From a virus (taxonomy: Duplodnaviria > Heunggongvirae > Uroviricota > Caudoviricetes): a DNA stretch of 64,000 nt. The stretch lies in the IMG/VR virus record IMGVR_UViG_2675903278_000002; one strand, 5' to 3'. The position numbers and the translations under genes are program-made. Positions 27 through 56,815 of this stretch are shown here, one piece after another. The notes under the pieces are model-generated. The model was not told where the DNA came from. It was given only the letters and a program-made list of their open reading frames with translations, and did not search any database. The stretch's first letter is position 1. The number at the start of each line of letters is the position of its first letter.

Positions 27-3000
27 ATGCCACAAGCGAGTTCCATCGTTTACATCGCATTGATTGGTGGCGCTGGTTACAACGTCGGTTCCCCACATCA
101 GGCAGGCATTTCAGAACTGGTTCTACGAGCAGGCAATGGAAACCCCAAAGGAATTACCGGGGCTTTGTGGAAGCGTACAGCCGTCGGATTAACGAATTTC
201 GCCTGGATCAACACATCCGGCGATACATATGATATTTACGTTGAGATTGGCAATTATGCGACGAGTGTAAATATCCATTGGGATTGTACTGCAAATGCGA
301 CAGTTTCTATTTATACATCGCCAACATATTCAGCGAGTAAGCCTTCCAGCGTTACCGATGGTGTTGTTTATACGATGTATAGCACACATCAGAAACCGAC
401 GCCGTTAGATATTGGAGCACTGCCAACAACCGGAGGAACAGTTTCAGGTCCGTTGTCTGTTACAGGTGGATTAACTGGTTCATTGAATGGTAATGCAAGT
501 ACAGCCACGAAATTGCAGACGGCAAGAACTATCGGCGGCGTGAGCTTTGATGGTACTGCGAATATTAATTTGCCAGGTGTTAATACGACTGGTAATCAGA
601 ATACAACGGGCAACGCTGCAACCGCTACAAAACTACAGACAGCGCGTACAATCAACGGTGTTAAGTTTGATGGTTCTGCGGACATAACGCTGACTCCTGC
701 GAACCTTGACGTATACAGCAAAAGCGAAATAGACAATAAAAAAGGGATGAGAAAATACACTTTTTCAGCGCCTGCAAATGCAGTAAGCGGTAAGTGGTAT
801 CCTATAGTCTTTCGCCGATCTGGAGGCAATACCGATGAATTAGCCTCACGAGTTGTGATAACTACTTATTCCTCAGCTGGCGGATACGCCATGAATAATT
901 GTGAATTTAATGGGTTTGTTATGCCTGGCGGTTGGTCTGATCGCGGTTCATATGCGGCTGGTTTTTTCTCAATATATTCTACTGCTGAGCGAGCTATACA
1001 CTCGATTATTTCAGGTGTGAAAGATGACGATTTGTGTAGTGTATTTTACGTTGAAGCCAGAGCATTCCCTATCAAGATATTTGCTGAGGAGGGCTTGAAC
1101 GTAATTGTTCCAACGGCTGATTATGCAGTTGGTCAAACCACTTATAAGTGGGGGGCAACTGATCCTTTATCAGAAAGTACGAATGCACAGATAATTTTGG
1201 ACTTTAAAAATGGACGAGGTTATTACTGTTCACATCCATTTATTTCAAGTCTTTCAGGAAATGCTGCTACAGCAACGAAATTGCAGACTGCAAGAACTAT
1301 CGGCGGCGTGGCCTTCGATGGATCTGCGAACATAAATTTGCCTGGTGTAAACACGGCAGGTAATCAGAATACAACGGGCAACGCGGCTACTGCTACGAAG
1401 TTGCAAACAGCGAGAAACATCAATGGTGTTAAGTTTGATGGCTCAGGCGATATCAACATTAATACACTGGTATCTCGTGGCCGAGTTACGGCGTTAAGCG
1501 GCTCTACTCAAGGCACTGCTGGCATTCAAATGTATGAGGCGTACAACAATAGCTACCCGACCATGTATGGCAACGTATTGCACATGAAAGGTGCGAGTGC
1601 TTCTGGTGAGGGCGAGATGCTTGTTGGCTGGAGCGGAACGGATGGTGCTCATGCACCGGTTTATGTTCGTTCACGCCGTGATACTTCGACAGCGAACTGG
1701 TCTGGCTGGGCGCAGATCTACACAACTGCTCATAAACCCACAGCGAAAGATGTTGGGGCCGCGCAAGCGTTTAGCGCGTCTTACAGCACAGGGGCTGGCA
1801 ATTGGACTACCGCTGAATTTATCGCATGGCTGAAGGAGCGTGGTGCTTTCGAAGTGCCGTACTGGATGATGAAGGGTTCCTGGTCATATGCCGACAATAA
1901 AATTATCACTGATACAGGTGTCGGCAATATCTGTCTTGCTGGTGCGGTTATCGAGGTTTTAGGTACCGAAGGCGCAATGACCATCCGAGTTACTACGCCT
2001 ACAACGACGACCGGTGGTGGGATTGCCTGTGCTCAGTTCACCTATATTAATCACGGTAGCGCGTATGCCCCTGCCTGGCGCAGAGATTACAACACGACTC
2101 TCAAACCCACTGCGGCTGATGTCGGTGCGTTGCCGAGCGGTGGCGGCACACTTTCCGGCGCACTCACATTATCTATGGCTGCGCCAAGTGTCCAGTTACG
2201 AGGGCAAGGTACGGACACCAGACAGTACATCATGGCTTACAGAACCGATGGCGCTACATCATGGTATGTGGGCAAGGCTAACAACGGCTCCGATAATGCG
2301 ATGTTCTGGAACTATACCGGCTCCAACGGAATTGAATTGGCTGCCGATGGCAATGTGCGTATTAATGCGAAGGGTAAACAGTTTACGTTCGCAAACAATG
2401 GGAACTTAGGTCTTGTTGCTTCGTTGGATCAGAGTTCAGTTCCACAGGGTACTTACCATCAAGTAGCTCTTAACACTGGCACTGTTGGTGGTAAATCGTA
2501 CCTTCGAAAATTCCGCGGCGGCAACACAGACACCATTTGGCATGAGACGGTTCAGGGCGGCTTCCTTCGTTGGGCAACCGGCAATGCTGATGAGCAAGAA
2601 GAACTGTCTATCAGTACTGGCTATGGTGTTCGAGCAAGAGGTGAAATCACTTCCCTTAGCGCCAATGGTCTAAGAGTGGCTTACGGGAATTACGGCTTCT
2701 TTATTCGCAATGATGGCGGAACAACTTACTTCTTGCTGACTGCTTCTGGCGACAAGTTCGGAAGCTGGAATGCTTTGCGTCCAATGTACATTAACAACGC
2801 TTCAGGCGCGGTTACGATGGGGAACGGGTTGTCGCTTGCCGGTGGCTTAAATGTCACGAGCGGAAATATCCGAATCCCGACGTCGAGTACATCTTGGATC
2901 GACATGAGAAACAATGCCGCTCTGTCTAACAGTTCTGCGGTTGCCACTTCCTCTGCATCGGCCATTATTCGTCAGGAGCACGCCGATCGTCATTATTTTG

Positions 3001-3437
3001 TTGGTGGTTTAGGCAACTCTCAGTTCGGGTTCTACATGATTAACAAGTCACGAACCGCGAACGGCACGGATGCGAACGCATACCTCCAGAATGACGGTAC
3101 TTGGGTTTGCGGCGGTAATGGCAGCTTTAATGACGTTTATATCCGTTCTGACCGCCGTAGTAAGCGCAATATTCGCAAGATTGACCGGGCGCTCGACAAG
3201 CTGGAGCAGATCGAAGGTGTTCTCTACGAGATTCAGGTCTGTGGCCGTTATGAGCAGTCTGGTGGCCTCATCGCTCAGGATGTCCAGAATGTTCAACCTG
3301 AACTGGTAACGGTCGACCATAACGATCAGTCAGGAGAGCCTCGTCTGCGTCTTAACTACAACGGCGTTATCGGCATGTTGGTTGAGGCTGTCAAAGAGTT
3401 GCGCGAGGAAGTGCGCGAACTGAAGGCAAAAATGTAA
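27..3437 (+). CDS. Phage tail fiber protein with fiber repeats and C-terminal intramolecular chaperone (peptidase S74-like) domain; reading frame is open upstream to the window edge, so probably 5' partial
   Basis: 1136 aa ORF; duplicated NAATATKLQTARTIGGV(S/A)FDG(T/S)ANINLPGVNT motif typical of phage tail fiber repeats; C-terminal SDRRSKRNI ... LVEAVKELREEVRELKAKM resembles the autoproteolytic chaperone domain of endosialidase and L-shaped tail fibers; no stop codon between position 3 and the ATG at 27. Confidence 0.8.
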   Translation: MPQASSIVYIALIGGAGYNVGSPHQAGISELVLRAGNGNPKGITGALWKRTAVGLTNFAWINTSGDTYDIYVEIGNYATSVNIHWDCTANATVSIYTSPTYSASKPSSVTDGVVYTMYSTHQKPTPLDIGALPTTGGTVSGPLSVTGGLTGSLNGNASTATKLQTARTIGGVSFDGTANINLPGVNTTGNQNTTGNAATATKLQTARTINGVKFDGSADITLTPANLDVYSKSEIDNKKGMRKYTFSAPANAVSGKWYPIVFRRSGGNTDELASRVVITTYSSAGGYAMNNCEFNGFVMPGGWSDRGSYAAGFFSIYSTAERAIHSIISGVKDDDLCSVFYVEARAFPIKIFAEEGLNVIVPTADYAVGQTTYKWGATDPLSESTNAQIILDFKNGRGYYCSHPFISSLSGNAATATKLQTARTIGGVAFDGSANINLPGVNTAGNQNTTGNAATATKLQTARNINGVKFDGSGDININTLVSRGRVTALSGSTQGTAGIQMYEAYNNSYPTMYGNVLHMKGASASGEGEMLVGWSGTDGAHAPVYVRSRRDTSTANWSGWAQIYTTAHKPTAKDVGAAQAFSASYSTGAGNWTTAEFIAWLKERGAFEVPYWMMKGSWSYADNKIITDTGVGNICLAGAVIEVLGTEGAMTIRVTTPTTTTGGGIACAQFTYINHGSAYAPAWRRDYNTTLKPTAADVGALPSGGGTLSGALTLSMAAPSVQLRGQGTDTRQYIMAYRTDGATSWYVGKANNGSDNAMFWNYTGSNGIELAADGNVRINAKGKQFTFANNGNLGLVASLDQSSVPQGTYHQVALNTGTVGGKSYLRKFRGGNTDTIWHETVQGGFLRWATGNADEQEELSISTGYGVRARGEITSLSANGLRVAYGNYGFFIRNDGGTTYFLLTASGDKFGSWNALRPMYINNASGAVTMGNGLSLAGGLNVTSGNIRIPTSSTSWIDMRNNAALSNSSAVATSSASAIIRQEHADRHYFVGGLGNSQFGFYMINKSRTANGTDANAYLQNDGTWVCGGNGSFNDVYIRSDRRSKRNIRKIDRALDKLEQIEGVLYEIQVCGRYEQSGGLIAQDVQNVQPELVTVDHNDQSGEPRLRLNYNGVIGMLVEAVKELREEVRELKAKM
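481..700 (+). repeat. Copy 1 of an approx 210 bp intragenic duplication in the tail fiber gene (second copy at 1260..1470)
   Basis: Near-identical nucleotide and peptide segments encoding GNA(S/A)TATKLQTARTIGGV.FDG.ANINLPGVNT.GNQNTTGNAATATKLQTAR.INGVKFDGS. Confidence 0.7.
1260..1470 (+). repeat. Copy 2 of the tail fiber intragenic duplication
   Basis: Direct comparison with 481..700 in the sequence. Confidence 0.7.
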
Positions 3438-3503
3438 TCAAGGTGAATGGTGAGGGGCCACCCTCACCAATTCAGGATATTCACATCAAAAAGGAGATTA
3501 GAT

Positions 3504-4286
3504 GTGCCAATTGTCGGTGTTCCCGGTTGGATTGGGTCTTCGGCTGTCAGTGTGACAGGCCAGAGATGGATGAGTGCGGCTCGAACGGCGGTGCAACTGC
3601 CAGCGGCTGGTTCAATGTCTCAAATGGCCGGGCGATCTAAAGAAGTTCAGTACAGCATCGGTGCGAATCATAACTACAACAAAGACACACTGATCAACTA
3701 TTTAAAATCCCAGGGGGCGACGCCAGTCGTTGTTACCATTACAGGGGATCTGGTGTCGTCCAGTAGCGGCGTGCCATGTTTAGATTTCCCGAGTTCACTT
3801 ACCAACTCTTATATCAGCCTTGTAATCAACGCAGGTGTGACTGTCTATGGACGCGGTGGCAATGGTGGTAGTAACGCTGCCGGTGCTGCTGGTGGTAACG
3901 CAATTAATAATGGCATCGGTACACGCTTGCGTATTACGAATAATGGTGCAATCGCTGGAGGTGGTGGCGGCGGTGGCGGTGGTAACAGGGGTAAACTAAT
4001 ATTTGGTGGTGGCGGTGGTCGCCCATTCGGTGCTGGTGGGTCTTCCTCTCATATGAGTTCCGGTGCAACTGCTGGTACTATTTCCGCTCCTGGTAAAGGA
4101 TCTGTTGGTGAGGGGTCTCTTAGTGCATATACAGGCGGTTCGGGTGGTAATGTCGGTGCTGCTGGAGGAAGATGTAATACTCAAGGTAACGGTACAGAAT
4201 ATAACGGCGGGGCAGCTGGTAAAGCCGTAACTGGCAACGCGCCTACATGGACTAAAGCTGGGGCAATTTACGGCGCTCATGTGTAA
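3504..4286 (+). CDS. Glycine-rich hypothetical protein, possibly tail-fiber associated; proposed GTG start
   Basis: ORF 3447..4286; AAGGAG at 3491..3496 sits 7 nt upstream of GTG 3504; long poly-Gly tracts (GGGGGGGGGN, GGGGG); lies between tail fiber and lysis genes. Confidence 0.45.
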   Translation: MPIVGVPGWIGSSAVSVTGQRWMSAARTAVQLPAAGSMSQMAGRSKEVQYSIGANHNYNKDTLINYLKSQGATPVVVTITGDLVSSSSGVPCLDFPSSLTNSYISLVINAGVTVYGRGGNGGSNAAGAAGGNAINNGIGTRLRITNNGAIAGGGGGGGGGNRGKLIFGGGGGRPFGAGGSSSHMSSGATAGTISAPGKGSVGEGSLSAYTGGSGGNVGAAGGRCNTQGNGTEYNGGAAGKAVTGNAPTWTKAGAIYGAHV

Positions 4287-9714: not shown

Positions 9715-9722
9715 TAGATTAT

Positions 9723-9789
9723 GACCTGCTTCCGTATGTATTTAATAAGTTACTTATTATTTGTATATACAGAAGCAGGTCTTTTAAAG
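9723..9789. terminator. Large hairpin (10 bp stem GACCTGCTTC/GAAGCAGGTC, AT-rich 39 nt loop) followed by TTTTAAAG; putative terminator; same stem sequence recurs at 56751..56815
   Basis: Inverted repeat read directly in sequence downstream of the KAP NTPase stop. Confidence 0.4.
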
Positions 9790-16168: not shown

Positions 16169-16367
16169 GCGGGAGAAGGAAACGCTTCATGAAATCAGTA
16201 AGTGGCCGGAGTTCCCTGAGTACTGGAAGCCTAAAACGCGAGCTAAGTTAGAGCGTTTAGGGTTGGTTGCAAACGTTTCTGAAACGTGGTGCTCGGCCAA
16301 CTACCAGTTAACTGATAAAGGGAAAGTATTGCTACAGCAATTAGTAGAATCAGGAGTGTTAAAATGA
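16152..16367 (+). CDS. Hypothetical protein
   Basis: 71 aa ORF; overlaps neighbours at both ends. Confidence 0.4.
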   Translation: MIVLSKREKETLHEISKWPEFPEYWKPKTRAKLERLGLVANVSETWCSANYQLTDKGKVLLQQLVESGVLK

Positions 16368-16516
16368 TTCCATACATCTCATTAGCTTTTATGGGTGGCT
16401 TCCTTATCGGCTTCGGCATCTGTCGTGATTTAATTAAGCAGGAACTTAAAACCAAAACACTGTGCATCGGAAAGCGTGTGTATCGGGTAGTTCATGAAAC
16501 AAAGGTTAGAAAATGA
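16364..16516 (+). CDS. Small membrane protein (50 aa), apparent paralog of 15989..16168
   Basis: ATGA overlap at both ends; hydrophobic N-terminus then GKRVYRVVHETKVRK, resembling RRGRIYRIVEITRTVK of the upstream small protein. Confidence 0.3.
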   Translation: MIPYISLAFMGGFLIGFGICRDLIKQELKTKTLCIGKRVYRVVHETKVRK

Positions 16517-16803
16517 GCAATTTAACTTCTTGGGACTGGTGGTTGGCCACCTATTTCTTAGCGGCCGGAGTCGCATTCGCCTTTTACGTAGGTCAGTTAG
16601 TCGTAAAACTGCTGCTGATTAAATTTGCCAGTCATAAACGTATCGATGATGGTCTGTGGCGTCTTGGCACCCTGGTGGAAACTCGCTACGGGCAACTTAA
16701 GGAGAACGAAACCATTACTATCCAAGCGAAACGATTCACTGCCACCATCACAAGAACACCTAGTCGTAGAGTGGCCTTGATCAAAAAAGTTACAACCGAA
16801 TAA
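16513..16803 (+). CDS. Hypothetical small membrane protein
   Basis: 96 aa; N-terminal transmembrane segment WDWWLATYFLAAGVAFAFYVGQLVV. Confidence 0.4.
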   Translation: MSNLTSWDWWLATYFLAAGVAFAFYVGQLVVKLLLIKFASHKRIDDGLWRLGTLVETRYGQLKENETITIQAKRFTATITRTPSRRVALIKKVTTE

Positions 16804-17579
16804 AAATACAATGATAAGTATTTACTTACTTATCTTTTATGTATAAGATGACTTTGTTTTCGTTGAGACGCGACTGTTTGAACTTAAATACAAGTGCAAA
16901 CGAAGAAGTCTATCTGGCAGTAGCCTAATAAGCCAAACACCAGCGAGGTCAGTTTCCAGCCTCGTTACCGAAATGGGACACACTGAGCGAGTGTGATTGC
17001 AGAACGCAGGAGGGAACATGAGTGTTCCCTCCGATGAAGTAACAGAATGGGCGGTCGGTATATTTTCAACTCAATATGACTCCCGGATTCTTAGCCACTG
17101 ACCGCCCATCCTGTTACGTCATTTTGTTCAATTATGTCGTTTATACTGGGTTAAAAAGCGGCGGCGTAGCCCGGCTGGTATGGTTAGCCAGCACACAACG
17201 TTGAGGCCATTACATTTTTATCAATTCTAAGGTTCTATTCACAGAGATACCGGCGAGCGTTGATATGTAACATGTTGGGCAAACATTCAATCGGAGTAGT
17301 GGCCTCAACGTTGTGAAGACAGGATTGTTGTGTAGGTTTAACCACTGTTGCCATTGGTGCCTGTTTTCACAACAAATGATTCCATACATCACATTGTATA
17401 AATTACAAAGTAGGCGCTGTCCTCAAAAACATCATCTACTTAAAGATTTTGTCTTCTATTGAGCGAAGTCGAAAACGTCTGGCACTAACGAAAAGTGCAA
17501 GTAGCGGTGCGTTTCCTGGCAGAAACTAACACCGCCGCGATTGGCACTGTTGAGTAATAAATACTGTCAGTGCTGAATT

Positions 17580-17654
17580 GATGGTGTAGCTCAGCGGTAG
17601 AGCAGTTGGCTGTTAACCAACTGGTCGGTGGTTCGAATCCACCCACCATCGCCA
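17580..17654 (+). tRNA. tRNA-Asn (anticodon GTT)
   Basis: Manual fold: 7 bp acceptor stem GATGGTG/CACCATC, D-arm TAGCTCAGCGGTAGAGC, anticodon loop CTGTTAA, T-loop GGTGGTTCGAATCCACC, 3' GCCA. Confidence 0.75.
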
Positions 17655-17656
17655 AT

Positions 17657-17732
17657 GCCGGTTTAGCTCAGTTGGTAGAGCGCCTGCCTTGTAAGCAGGA
17701 TGTCAGCGGTTCGATCCCGTTAACCGGCACCA
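17657..17732 (+). tRNA. tRNA-Thr (anticodon TGT)
   Basis: Manual fold: acceptor GCCGGTT/AACCGGC, D-arm TAGCTCAGTTGGTAGAGC, anticodon stem CCTGC/GCAGG with loop CTTGTAA, T-loop GGTTCGATCC, 3' ACCA. Confidence 0.75.
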
Positions 17733-18052
17733 ACACAACAGGTAAGAGCATTGGGCGAATCGGCGATACTGACCCACAAGCCCGTAAATCGATAGAGTCA
17801 GACCAGTGCTCTTACCGTTGTGAGGAAGTGCAGCTCTTTGAAGCAACCAGAAGATAAGCATCTGGCTTCACAACACAACGATAAGATCATTACGGTTAAT
17901 CGTCGTTCATGTGCACAATGACTGGTCGAAAGGTAGTGATCTTACCGTTGTGATGAATGCACAGGCTGATGTGCCGCAACTACAGTAGTGCGCGCTTTGC
18001 GGGGCTTGCTACAACCCTGTGTCGGAGTTCAGCACCGACCATCACAATAGCT

Positions 18053-18139
18053 GGAGAGTAGGGAGCATGGTGCTCAAGCGGTCTTGAAATCCGTCCCATT
18101 GTGCAAACGATGATGGTTCGATTCCATTACTCTCCGCCA
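18053..18139 (+). tRNA. Class II tRNA with long variable arm, most likely tRNA-Ser (anticodon TGA); anticodon stem imperfect
   Basis: Acceptor GGAGAGT/ACTCTCC, T-loop GGTTCGATTCC, 3' GCCA, long variable region; anticodon loop CTTGAAA only with a mismatched closing pair. Confidence 0.55.
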
Positions 18140-18292
18140 GACACAGCGTTGAGCGGTTTGGCCTTTTAATCACCCAGATTAAGACTCCGCTAACATAAAC
18201 CAGACCGCTCAACGCTGTGATAGACAATTACGGCAGACGTTCTTAACCATAGCTTGCTAACATCCTAGCAACACTTTTTTCAGCGCAAAATT

Positions 18293-18318
18293 CAAAGGGG
18301 CTTCGGCCCCTTTTTTAC
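18293..18318 (+). terminator. Rho-independent terminator downstream of the tRNA island
   Basis: GGGGC-TTCG-GCCCC hairpin followed by TTTTTT. Confidence 0.7.
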
Positions 18319-18442
18319 TGGGTTGACTCCAGAATATTTCCAGGTATGGTTTTACCACTTTTGGTCTTCATTTAGCAACGGCAGCATTAGACTGCCTGCA
18401 TGTGGGTGACAGGATGTGGCAGAAAAACATGGAGATAAGCCA

Positions 18443-30232: not shown

Positions 30233-30503
30233 AGAATTATGGCGCTTGTTGAGGAAGTCACTCCTCTTACGCACTTTGTTTTGCCATGCCGGCAGTTAGC
30301 TTCTGCCTTTGACTATTCATGCGGCAACCCCGCATTTCGCCACAATGGGCAATTCACTTTTATGGAATAAACTGGCCGTTGTGTCGATTTAATTAGCATG
30401 GCCTTACCATGCTAATTTATTCAACTTGTACAATCCTGCAAATCTATCCACTCAGGCTTACACCGTCTTCGTTATTGTAGAAATGAGGATCATCAGCGTT
30501 GAA

Positions 30504-30719
30504 TCAGCTTAGAGCAACGACATTTGCTGCTGCTGGGCCTTTAGCCCCATTCTCGATAGAGAATTCGACCTGCTGGCCTTCTTCCAAAGTGCGGAAATTA
30601 TTACTCTGAATTGCCGAAAAATGTACAAAAACATCTTTACTGCCATCAGCAGGAGAAATAAAGCCAAAGCCTTTATCAGAGTTAAACCATTTTACTAAAC
30701 CAGTCATTTTATTAGACAT
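30504..30719 (-). CDS. cspA: Cold-shock protein (CspA family)
   Basis: [21 protein letters not shown]... RNP1-like motif; 71 aa from the internal ATG at 30719. Confidence 0.85.
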
Positions 30720-31048
30720 AGATATTACCTTCTTAATTTTGTGAGCCACATAGTGCGGCGAGAATTTGATCTGTATAGATTGGGACTTACTTAGGCACTT
30801 AAGGAGGAGACTCACGAAGAAGGGAAATCAGAAGATAACACTGAACTGAGACTGCTTTACTAAAACTGCTTACATAAGGTCTGTCTTGCAAACCAACGAT
30901 GCTATTAACGCATACCCCTTCTTTTCATGCAACCTTTATTTTTCAAAGATAACTAATTTTTGTCACCATTGGTTTAGTAAACGTTAACGAACCAGACGAT
31001 GCCAGACACCTTTACAGAGAACAGATGCCCGCCAATTGGCGGGCATCA

Positions 31049-38821: not shown

Positions 38822-39300
38822 ACCACTGCGGTGAGTAGTCTGCTCACCGCATTCGTATCCAGCTCATTATCCACTGTAGTCAGTAACAAAACCTTCCTAC
38901 ATATCTGCTAACCACTGTAGCGAGTAGACAGCCTTTCATTCGCATCAAACAACCACTATGGTGAGTATTGGAGTGAGATGTCCAGCGGGTATCCACTATG
39001 GTGAGTAAGCCTTTGCTGTTTTCAGTGGATATCCACTCGCCACAGTGGATACGCTCAAAGATGAGGGCGACAACAACCACTATAGACAGTAAATTTTCCA
39101 AGATACCCAGTGACCACTAACCTCGCAGCCCTTGTTTCATCAGTGTTAGTGATCACTAACATTTAATTCAGTATTTGCATTCTACTGCCTACAGTGGTTA
39201 TCAACAGATAACGATACTCACTATAGTGGATAGCGAATTACAGATATAAGTAAGGCTCACTACAGTGGATAGTGAGCCTTACTACTAACTACAGTGGTTG
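38822..39300. repeat. Iteron array downstream of the rep gene (copy-control, incA-like): roughly ten copies of CTATAGTGGAT / CCACTATAG-type repeats in both orientations
   Basis: Direct reading: CCACTGTAGTGAGTAG, CCACTATGGTGAGTA, ATCCACTATGGTGAGTAAG, CTCACTATAGTGGATAGCG, CTCACTACAGTGGATAGTGAG and others. Confidence 0.75.
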
Positions 39301-56729: not shown

Positions 56730-56750
56730 TTTGTTCTGGCGTCTGTAATT

Positions 56751-56815
56751 AGCCTGCTTCTGTATATATAAATAACTACATATTAATTATTAATATACGG
56801 AAGCAGGCTGTTTTG
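56751..56815. terminator. Long hairpin (approx 17 bp stem AGCCTGCTTCTGTATAT / ATATACGGAAGCAGGCT, AT-rich loop) followed by GTTTTG; second copy of the element at 9723..9789
   Basis: Read directly downstream of the methyltransferase stop. Confidence 0.45.

Follow-up and report, generated by a model that had tools for sequence, protein, structure and literature searches.

A non-coding stretch at about 16840-18316 of the window analysed here, 64,000 nucleotides of an SSU5-like phage-plasmid whose nearest records are Escherichia phage CMS-2020a and phage Cyrano, is most likely a plus-strand non-coding RNA operon which constitutes a mobile cassette of structured RNAs in enterobacterial phages, temperate and in some cases virulent. 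Four kinds of element stand end to end in it: true tRNAs, cloverleaf tRNA-like elements (TLEs), long hairpin modules and, at the 5' end, a tag template followed by pseudoknots. We treat these ~1.47 kb as a single non-coding unit that would be transcribed as one. Most of it had been noticed in a preliminary description as a phage-plasmid tRNA island at 16990-18320 with non-coding and strongly structured modules, a picture that holds. The extent given there is real as well, but the unit starts upstream of it, and the supposed spacers at 17819-17872 and 17949-18046 are structured themselves; neither the tag RNA nor the distribution of the elements beyond phage-plasmids was part of that description.

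The head of the unit lies upstream of 16990, and homology among SSU5-like plasmids opens just past the last small open reading frame (ORF; stop at 16803). The putative start of the unit is a promoter-like -10 region, TG-TATAAG (16840-16851, plus strand), which is kept in SSU5-like relatives (alignment A1). At the other end, homology with relatives stops at two terminator-like hairpins (18254-18316, plus strand), TTGCTA/TAGCAA followed by T6 and GGGGC-TTCG-GCCCC followed by T6; both the promoter-like site and these hairpins were identified by reading the sequence itself. Pfam has no match for the small ORFs of the region, and the insertions and deletions among relatives are gains or losses of entire modules, so that a protein-coding region is a poor fit and was rejected. 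Rfam 15 contains no model for a module, a TLE or the tag RNA, and our search of the published literature, which did not extend to many papers in subscription journals, found no description of these RNAs.

Long-stem modules are plus-strand RNA structures

The long-stem modules, ACAAC...GUUGU, are real RNA structures on the plus strand with covarying arms. All six of the long stems that had been reported for the region are present, several of them being longer than stated, and their folding z-scores range from -4.4 to -9.1, with none of 200 shuffles folding equally well. The 64 kb window holds 14 long stems, of which five, the top four scorers among them, fall within this 1.2 kb.

The series, which lies on the plus strand throughout, opens with a 10-bp hairpin, GGAGGGAACA/TGTTCCCTCC (17009-17032, z = -4.4), at whose position SSU5 and pJN2-26 carry wholly different stem sequences with the pairing kept (A1). 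Module M1 (17034-17122) has a 26-bp stem that is 88% complementary and a variable loop with a conserved UCCCGG; in 10 aligned and folded orthologues 25 of 25 pairs are kept, and the one-sided changes are from G-C to G-U. Module M2 (17194-17315; CACAACGTTGAGGCCATTAC/GTAGTGGCCTCAACGTTGTG) combines a 20-bp stem with an 82-nt structured interior, in which a hairpin covaries (AUGUU/AACAU vs AUGUA/UACAU). Module M3 (17734-17822; CACAAC-A-GGTAAGAGCATTGG/CCAGTGCTCTTACC-GTTGTG) begins one base past the CCA of tRNA-Thr, and its interior (17754-17797) is found in pJN2-26 within another stem and with covariation (CTGAC/GTCAG vs CAGCC/GGCTG). Module M4 (17874-17952; CACAACGATAAGATCATTAC/GTAGTGATCTTACCGTTGTG) forms a 23-bp stem at 17871-17955. 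The terminal module (18142-18219; CACAGCGTTGAGCGGTTTGG/CCAGACCGCTCAACGCTGTG), with a 24-bp stem at 18138-18223 (z = -9.1), begins 2 nt past the CCA of tRNA-Ser and holds an invariant GACUCCGC in its interior; the fold of its orthologue alignment shows two compensatory pairs, U-A to C-G and G-C to A-U.

For the family as a whole we assembled the unique modules of the window together with those of ten phage loci, of six plasmid loci and of the viral contigs returned by two pattern scans. Read in the sense direction, the closing helices of these 54 unique modules contain 79 G.U pairs and 11 mismatches, as against 27 G.U pairs and 53 mismatches in the antisense direction (an earlier count gave 75 vs 11), and this excess on the sense strand identifies the modules as structures of the plus-strand RNA. 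The arms covary among paralogues, since a module's own arms are complementary at 11.8 of 12 positions as compared to 9.5 of 12 for the arms of other modules, with 18 different arm 10-mers being represented. Among orthologues, stems are near-invariant and loops variable; one-sided changes are almost all from G-C to G-U, and compensatory changes are present. All orientable copies are in the sense orientation relative to transcription, and in the window as well as in several relatives modules adjoin the CCA ends of tRNAs with a gap of 0-3 nt. Interiors differ greatly among modules with the same arms; several contain T-arm-like hairpins, for example GGGTTCGAATCCC in P1 and CAGAGTTCGACTCTCTG in locus L006. 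The 3' arms of modules carry a boxA-like GCTCTTAC, which is buried inside the perfect stem. In agreement with the preliminary description the modules are not canonical tRNAs, as neither the ARAGORN nor the Rfam scan calls one, and no module matches any Rfam family even at E <= 10.

Inverted repeats of this kind might in principle act at the level of DNA, be it as sites similar to attC or to miniature inverted-repeat transposable elements (MITEs) that shuffle tRNA cassettes, or as cruciform or origin structures. Like integron attC sites, the modules are imperfect inverted repeats (60-120 nt) that keep their ends (ACAAC/GTTGT), vary in their interiors (55-120 nt) and have a bulged base, and relatives gain and lose whole modules, as in Cyrano, where tRNA-Thr is joined to tRNA-Ser. 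However, the fit to the attC R''/R' core sites is partial (ACACAAC vs RYYYAAC and GTTGTGA vs GTTRRRY, that is 6/7 and 5/7 positions). Moreover, the modules are embedded in RNA genes, they are always transcribed sense with the orientable copies in one orientation, and they show a strong G.U vs A.C strand asymmetry that follows the transcribed strand. The SSU5-like, P1, lambdoid and Vi01 contexts have no integron integrase or transposase in common, and there are no target-site duplications. In view of the strand asymmetry, the covariation and the breadth of conservation we regard a role of the repeats as DNA as exceedingly improbable. The attC and MITE ideas were rejected on the strand asymmetry and the absence of a recombinase or endonuclease, and so was the earlier suggestion that the elements are remnants of homing events.

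The same three lines of evidence disfavour the notion that the region consists of decaying tRNA pseudogenes or of neutral rearrangement debris without function, to which we give next to no credence. The locus is highly mosaic, T-arm fragments occur in some interiors and tRNA-Ser is degenerate, all of which decay might produce. Yet pairing is maintained via compensatory and G.U changes, the stems are too long and too perfect for drift, and the units are conserved across E. coli plasmids, Y. pestis pMT1, P1, Vi01-like phages and Pseudomonas prophages. TRNA-derived pseudogenes, which had also been proposed, are thus not what we find: some of the elements are indeed tRNA-like cloverleaves, but they are conserved and covarying and hence not in decay.

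tRNA-like elements and the tag template

The TLE of the window (17949-18046, plus strand, 98 nt) is a cloverleaf in which the closing stem UGUGAUG/CAUCACA encloses a D-like hairpin (GCACA-GGCUGA-UGUGC), a variable centre and a T-like hairpin (GUCGG-AGUUCAGCA-CCGAC) that abuts the 3' strand. The GCUGA of its D-loop is complementary to the UCAGC of its T-loop. All 32 unique copies of the family have the same cloverleaf, which comprises a 7-bp closing stem (UGUGRUG/CAYCACA) followed by three unpaired bases, a D-like hairpin GCRCA-GGCUGA-UGYGC, a variable centre of 30-130 nt and a T-like hairpin NCCGG-AGAUCAGCA-CCGGN, whose 3' strand is continuous with the 3' strand of the closing stem to give a 12-bp stack as in tRNA. 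In a pair count that used the conserved ends only, joined by an artificial AAAA linker, 97.6% of the cells are paired and 7 of 22 pairs have changed on both sides, with none of 500 shuffles reaching this result; when the alignment is slid out of register pairing drops to 22-48%. In a Pseudomonas prophage both hairpins are kept, and a wholly different closing stem still pairs (GCGGAUG/CAUCCGC). The TLE loci taken from genome contigs are 16 with a GTTGTGRTG or ATTGTGGTG prefix and the one Pseudomonas locus, which was read by eye. A scan of genome contigs for the D-like hairpin mixed TLEs with unverifiable matches, an estimated ~17 of them arising by chance, and is not relied on.

The TLE shares its 7-bp closing stem continuous with a 5-bp T-like stem with tRNA and with the tRNA-like structures of plant viruses, mascRNA and the Y-RNA YrlA. 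Further likenesses are the D-like hairpin with GG in its loop, the complementary D- and T-like loops, the variable central arm and the tandem arrangement with true tRNAs. It differs from tRNA in its non-canonical loops, GGCUGA (6 nt) and AGAUCAGCA (9 nt), the T-like loop reading AGWUCAGCA and not UUCRANY, in having three and not two nucleotides after the closing stem, in lacking an anticodon arm and in its inconsistent CCA. A tail RCC[AC]AAUC directly follows the closing stem in 11 of the 32 copies and is missing from the window copy; a CCA end is therefore not a defining feature of the TLE. The closing stems have U3-A70 or G3-C70, and G3.U70 occurs in no TLE. ARAGORN does not call TLEs, nor does the Rfam tRNA model even at E <= 10. 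Y-RNA was rejected as a candidate family, the sole match to YrlA (RF02553) scoring 23.8 bits as compared to a gathering score of 69 and spanning two real tRNAs and no module.

A mini TLE (17819-17872, plus strand; also read from the letters themselves) has the architecture of the TLE family: UGUGAGG and CUUCACA form its closing stem of 7 bp, and directly against the 3' strand stands a T-like hairpin, CCAGA-AGAUAAGCA-UCUGG. This unit is kept in P1 too (locus L001, 1741-1798). A hairpin closed by GUUGUGAAGACAGG/CCUGUUUUCACAAC (17310-17373, plus strand, z = -3.7), the 5' strand of which overlaps the 3' arm of M2, is closed in the same manner as the TLEs. The UGUG of a closing stem forms the last four bases of the GUUGUG of the preceding module, and the closing CACA forms the start of the CACAAC of the next one; it is this four-base overlap of neighbouring units that gives rise to the recurring CACAAC / GTTGTGA junction motif. 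The shared end (A)CGTTGTGA, which the preliminary description took to terminate many of the elements, is thus a junction between adjoining closed elements and not a free-standing terminal motif. The paired CACAAC...GTTGTG is enriched (3 matches vs 0.2 expected, a value reached by none of 100 shuffles), whereas CGTTGTGA alone is not (5 matches vs 2.5 expected).

ARAGORN finds three tRNAs in the 64 kb window and nothing else, and these are exactly the three that had been proposed, all on the plus strand: tRNA-Asn (GTT; 17580-17654; Rfam tRNA 75 bits), tRNA-Thr (TGT; 17657-17732; Rfam tRNA 73 bits) and a non-canonical type-II tRNA-Ser (TGA)-like gene (18053-18139). The last of these is sub-threshold in both the tRNA and the tRNA-Sec models of Rfam, being missed by the former and having its top match with the latter (41 bits vs a gathering score of 47); as folded by ARAGORN, it has a D stem of 3 bp and a U.U mismatch in the anticodon stem. 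The variable arm of this gene (18096-18110) contains TGCAAACGATGAT, the same sequence as at the start of the tag region of P1 (A-TGCAAACGATGAT-CTG; L001, 1100-1112), which may be a coincidence (rough chance estimate ~0.06) or a trace of common origin. An extra tRNA-Tyr (GTA) is located between the Asn and Thr genes in CMS-2020a strains (L005/L006, 3361-3449) and in the P1-like phage Ro157c2YLVW.

Sixty bases upstream of the 16990-18320 stretch lies a tmRNA (transfer-messenger RNA)-like tag frame (16896-16931, plus strand), GCA AAC GAA GAA GTC TAT CTG GCA GTA GCC TAA TAA, which reads ANEEVYLAVA followed by two stops. Fifteen tag variants occur among relatives, all of 10 codons and of the form AN[DE]....[AV]A plus stop. 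They begin with GCA AAC GA, read AN[DE]xx[YFMV].. and end in AVA, VAA, MAA or AAA, the ends thus being conserved and the middle variable. SSU5, pHCM2 and pMT1 have ANEDTYLAVA, P1 and D6 have ANDDLMMVAA, P7 has ANDDLMMAAA and phage Vi01 has ANDNTFLAVA; lambdoid prophages carry ANDEQFLAVA, ANDDLMLMAA and ANDDVVLMAA, and ANDNQYLAVA is a further variant. For comparison, the tmRNA tag of E. coli is ANDENYALAA. No conserved in-frame start codon is present upstream of the tag, and SSU5 and pJN2-26 have in-frame stops a few codons upstream. The context that precedes the tags is UAAnU|GCA, which we take to resemble the resume site of tmRNA.

The tag is followed by hairpins and pseudoknots (16943-17008, plus strand). 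The first hairpin pairs GCGAGG (16943-16948) with CCTCGT (16960-16965), and a pseudoknot arises from the pairing of its loop (16954-16958) with 16974-16978; further on, a second hairpin (16979-16984/16990-16995) comes with a possible second pseudoknot. The first hairpin and the pseudoknots covary. All five sequence variants of the hairpin pair, among them ACGGGG/CCCCGU, GCGAGG/CCUCGU, GUGAGG/CCUCAU and GCAAGG/CCUUGU. The first pseudoknot occurs as GUCG/CGAC, CCGA/UCGG, CCAG/CUGG and UUCCA/UGGGA, and the second as GCCC/GGGC, GCCCUGA/UCAGGGC and GACGGGAG/CUCCCGUC. These variants were tabulated directly and not by a formal pair count, since the MAFFT alignment of the tag RNA shifts the SSU5-type rows by one column.

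Like tmRNA, the segment 16896-17008 has a 10-codon tag with a resume-type first codon GCA, no start codon or Shine-Dalgarno sequence and the pattern AN[DE]....A-A-stop, and the tag is followed by a hairpin and H-type pseudoknots. Unlike tmRNA, the unit head has no tRNA-like domain made of 5' and 3' ends, no G3.U70, no PK1 and no conserved CCA, and its tags have a C-terminal LAVA, VAA, MAA or AAA instead of LAA. ARAGORN and the Rfam tmRNA models remain below threshold. The Rfam models align solely to the tag segment (14 bits, E = 0.03, with gathering scores of 47 and 84), and ARAGORN calls no tmRNA in the loci examined and no tRNA-like domain for the tag. When its threshold was lowered to 60% it returned 16-29 noise calls per locus, one of which happened to include the tag, so this setting is uninformative. 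When the window was scanned for TTCRANN loops on 5-bp stems, only the T arms of the three tRNAs came up. The tag RNA thus stands outside the tmRNA family by its features, yet it is very probably derived from tmRNA.

But could the tag RNA together with the TLE or with host factors then make up a split or rearranged phage tmRNA that performs trans-translation or diverts it, with the modules as connecting helices? The 10-codon tags in their tmRNA-like context without a conserved start, the hairpin and two pseudoknots that follow and the alignment of Rfam tmRNA models to the tag are all in line with this idea, and many loci have, further downstream, a tRNA-like domain whose stacked stem measures 12 bp, RCC[AC] directly following the closing stem in 11 of 32 copies. 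However, the tag is located 5' of the TLE and not within it, the TLEs lack the alanine identity pair G3.U70, CCA is not conserved and is absent in the window, and ARAGORN finds no tmRNA above noise even at the lowered threshold. Moreover, there are loci with a tag but no TLE as well as loci with a TLE but no tag. We therefore consider a split tmRNA quite improbable. Rather unlikely, too, is the wider proposal that proteobacterial phages carry a rearranged tmRNA-derived system, consisting of the tag-pseudoknot RNA, a separate TLE and hairpins, which interferes with or replaces trans-translation of the host. If it were true, a phage-specified C-terminal tag (LAVA, VAA or MAA instead of LAA) could be added to stalled chains; alternatively, the RNAs could be decoys, either for tmRNA-SmpB or for a host immune system by which tmRNA and tRNA are sensed or cleaved. 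A tag template without a canonical tRNA-like domain, placed beside tRNAs and TLEs, suggests an undescribed phage manipulation of ribosome rescue, tRNA surveillance or RNA processing.

Proposed processing of the array and putative role of its products

As to how the array is used, we favour with modest confidence that it is one precursor RNA which is cut apart by RNase P and RNase III of the host. The whole array would be transcribed as a single precursor and "punctuated" by these host RNases. RNase P recognises the stack of acceptor and T stem; it is sure to act at the tRNAs, where it would cut on the 5' side of each, and would plausibly do the same at each TLE, because the 7-bp closing stem of the latter stacks on the 5-bp T-like stem just as in tRNA. 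Double-stranded RNA is a substrate of E. coli RNase III from a length of ~20 bp on; examples are the processing stalks of rRNA, the early RNA of T7 and DicF in its maturation. This enzyme would cut within the 20-26 bp stems, and the stems predicted for M1, M2, M4 and the terminal module are of that length and hence in the range of substrates of about two helical turns (at least 20 bp). Since stems stand 0-3 nt past the CCA of a tRNA, RNase III cutting inside a stem would leave the tRNA with a short 3' trailer for exonucleases to trim. Near-complete pairing would in addition insulate neighbouring tRNA-like folds from each other, and because nearly all bases are paired the 1.4 kb of untranslated RNA would offer little unstructured RNA for the loading of Rho. 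Freed in this way would be the tRNAs, TLEs and tag RNA, together with the interiors of the hairpins, whose loop motifs are conserved. Presumably these act on the translation or RNA-surveillance machinery of the host, and their role probably concerns translation or counter-defence.

There are parallels for such an arrangement. As predicted substrates the modules resemble the RNase III stalks of 16S/23S rRNA, T7 early RNA and DicF in that sequences on either side of a product RNA form near-perfect duplexes of at least 20 bp, on a polycistronic transcript that is non-coding, and the homologous P1 operon has an annotated dicF-like region as well. Stable RNAs are also known from phage tRNA clusters, namely T4 species 1 and 2 (rnaC/rnaD), the M3 RNA of phi80 and the C4 RNA of P1/P7. 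These are structured non-tRNA RNAs that are co-transcribed with phage tRNAs and matured by RNase P of the host, and RNase III, too, cuts T4 species 1 in vitro. In their location among phage tRNAs the modules are like the rnaC/rnaD-type RNAs; the present family differs in its grammar of modules, TLE and tag RNA and in its occurrence in temperate phage leaders. Among the options that the preliminary description had offered, processing-guide structures and small stable RNAs like those of T4-type tRNA clusters come closest to our findings. Still, each resemblance is partial, and membership fails in at least one defining feature, be it in tmRNA (unit head), in tRNA-like structures (TLE) or in RNase III stalks and T4 RNAs (modules).

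Several points weigh against the processing model. The promoter-like region at 16840-16851 is weak by consensus and was not listed by a consensus promoter scan, so that its role as promoter is putative. A generic RNase III substrate would not require sequence conservation as strong as that of the orthologous stems, and the conservation of module arms across paralogues, together with the recurrent U.G wobble and bulged A, likewise goes beyond the known needs of RNase III; this suggests a candidate sequence-specific partner. In view of the conserved interior motifs (GACUCCGC, UCCCGG, T-arm-like hairpins) the modules may be effectors and not spacers. As the TLE of the window has non-canonical loops and no CCA and is called by neither ARAGORN nor Rfam, its recognition by RNase P is a conjecture. 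Finally, the homologous region of P1 is non-essential for plaque formation, as CRISPR interference with trnT, plp, upl and neighbouring genes has shown (PMC10695390).

Modules and TLEs may instead be effectors in their own right, with processing being incidental. They could act as decoys or sponges for host nucleases or immune sensors directed at tRNA, tmRNA or double-stranded RNA or, in a variant of this idea, as small RNAs that pair with host RNAs via the conserved loops (GACUCCGC, UCCCGG); taken jointly, we hold these two forms to be possible but doubtful. In accordance with such a role, the stems and certain loop motifs are conserved beyond the needs of a spacer, T-arm-like hairpins occur in several module interiors (P1, L006) and the elements have spread over unrelated phage families. 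The region is accessory in P1, as counter-defence genes usually are. Furthermore, the elements travel with tRNAs (Asn, Tyr, Thr, Ser) of the kind that phages carry against anticodon nucleases. However, no target was found, no defence-related gene is consistently adjacent, and interiors are very different among modules with the same arms. Then again, a role as effectors is compatible with the processing model, the one that we prefer.

Distribution and genomic context

Common to all contexts of these RNAs is an untranslated promoter-proximal leader, always in the sense orientation, and no phage protein gene is shared by these contexts. The segment 16850-17330 is matched in 773 PLSDB plasmids from Klebsiella, Escherichia, Enterobacter, Yersinia, Salmonella and other genera, which include S. 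Typhi pHCM2 and Y. pestis pMT1; in SSU5-like plasmids the array follows a ligase gene cluster. The unit is mosaic with the leader of the ban operon of P1/P7/D6, to which tRNA-Asn/tRNA-Thr and the next elements are 85-93% identical. The P1 copy lies downstream of the C1-controlled ban promoters and of the annotated "dicF-like region", and the minus-strand ORFs plp and upl are annotated over the same structures. In the P1 record (NC_005856) plp ("putative lipoprotein") and upl, at 69472-70041 (L001, 1629-2198), run antisense over two long-stem modules, the mini TLE and the TLE. Both are probably spurious ORF calls. In Cyrano and Bas78, comparable antisense "hypothetical proteins" cover the RNA.

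The tag RNA, modules and TLE of a lambdoid contig match 515 of 50,697 phage records, among which are Vi01-like, N4-like and Felix-O1-like phages, siphoviruses of ~46-50 kb and phages of Erwinia, Vibrio and Acinetobacter, and 199 of 5,426 complete E. coli genomes have prophages with a match. In lambdoid prophages the elements stand between the gene for the Q antiterminator and those for lysis; in a P22-like one they occupy the 1.07 kb gap from the Q antiterminator gene to the holin gene, and in Pseudocitrobacter the order is Q gene, pR'-type promoter, isrJ (a short terminated transcript), module, TLE and terminator. In phage Bas78 the tag RNA, modules and TLE are bounded by a promoter-like site on one side and a terminator-like hairpin on the other. 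Of the curated families, only isrJ (RF01393) and Proteo-phage-1 (RF03044) turn up in these leaders, as neighbours and not as the same RNAs: isrJ, a short RNA from a pR'-type promoter, lies just upstream of the Pseudocitrobacter module and TLE, Proteo-phage-1 lies 130 nt upstream of the Pseudomonas TLE, and neither matches anything in the window. In two prophage contigs a Sib RNA (Ibs/Sib type I antitoxin, RF00113) is found near the tag RNA or modules (L130, 2612-2760; L036, 1709-1862).

In the virulent phage Vi01 the tag RNA lies in a non-coding region of more than 3 kb that has several similar long stems and is situated upstream of a tRNA cluster. No gene is annotated at 1777-4176 of this locus (L177), where the long stems measure 24-29 bp. 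In a 125-nt element at 2851-2975 of the same locus, GCCGUU/AACGGC forms an acceptor-like stem of 6 bp; the element also has a canonical T arm (GGGTTCGACTCCC) and ends in UCCA, and ARAGORN is silent on it.

Close relatives of the unit differ in their composition. In Cyrano tRNA-Thr is joined straight to tRNA-Ser without M3, mini TLE, M4 and TLE, the junction being at a CACAA repeat (L002, 3861-4031), and the CMS-2020a strains have different modules besides their extra tRNA-Tyr. pHCM2 has tRNA-Asn and the terminal module only. In a pMT1-type plasmid (L014) no tRNA is called in the locus; the array ends after M2 (1845-2266) and is followed by caf1R and caf1M of the F1 capsule locus (2280-3185), the capsule island appearing to have replaced the rest of the unit. 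The RNAs are present in replicons that serve as models or matter in medicine, namely in P1, in S. Typhi pHCM2 and Y. pestis pMT1, in the late leaders of P22-like and Stx-type phages and in Vi01-like therapeutic phages, where they are unannotated or hidden under probably spurious ORF calls such as plp and upl of P1. The family merits covariance models so that annotation stops calling proteins over these RNAs.

Within the unit of the window there is a 22-nt copy (17374-17395 vs 16363-16384, 95% identical) of the start of the small ORF at 16364-16516 (ATGATTCCATACAT...). In the SSU5 version of this copy a stop follows after 6 codons, and it is probably the remnant of a gene start. Elsewhere in the window, a full-length match to the Rfam cspA thermoregulator (30479-30897, minus strand, 185.7 bits) marks a cspA-type cold-shock gene with a regulatory 5' untranslated region. 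Two hairpins of 20-21 bp at 9721-9783 and 56747-56813 have the common core CCTGCTTC[CT]GTAT...ATAC[AG]GAAGCAGG and make up a repeated palindromic element, perhaps an operator or terminator. A cluster of inverted repeats at 38868-39054 (also detected at 39073-39201) is built on GGATACCCACT/AGTGGATA(C)C-type sequences and is unrelated to the module family.

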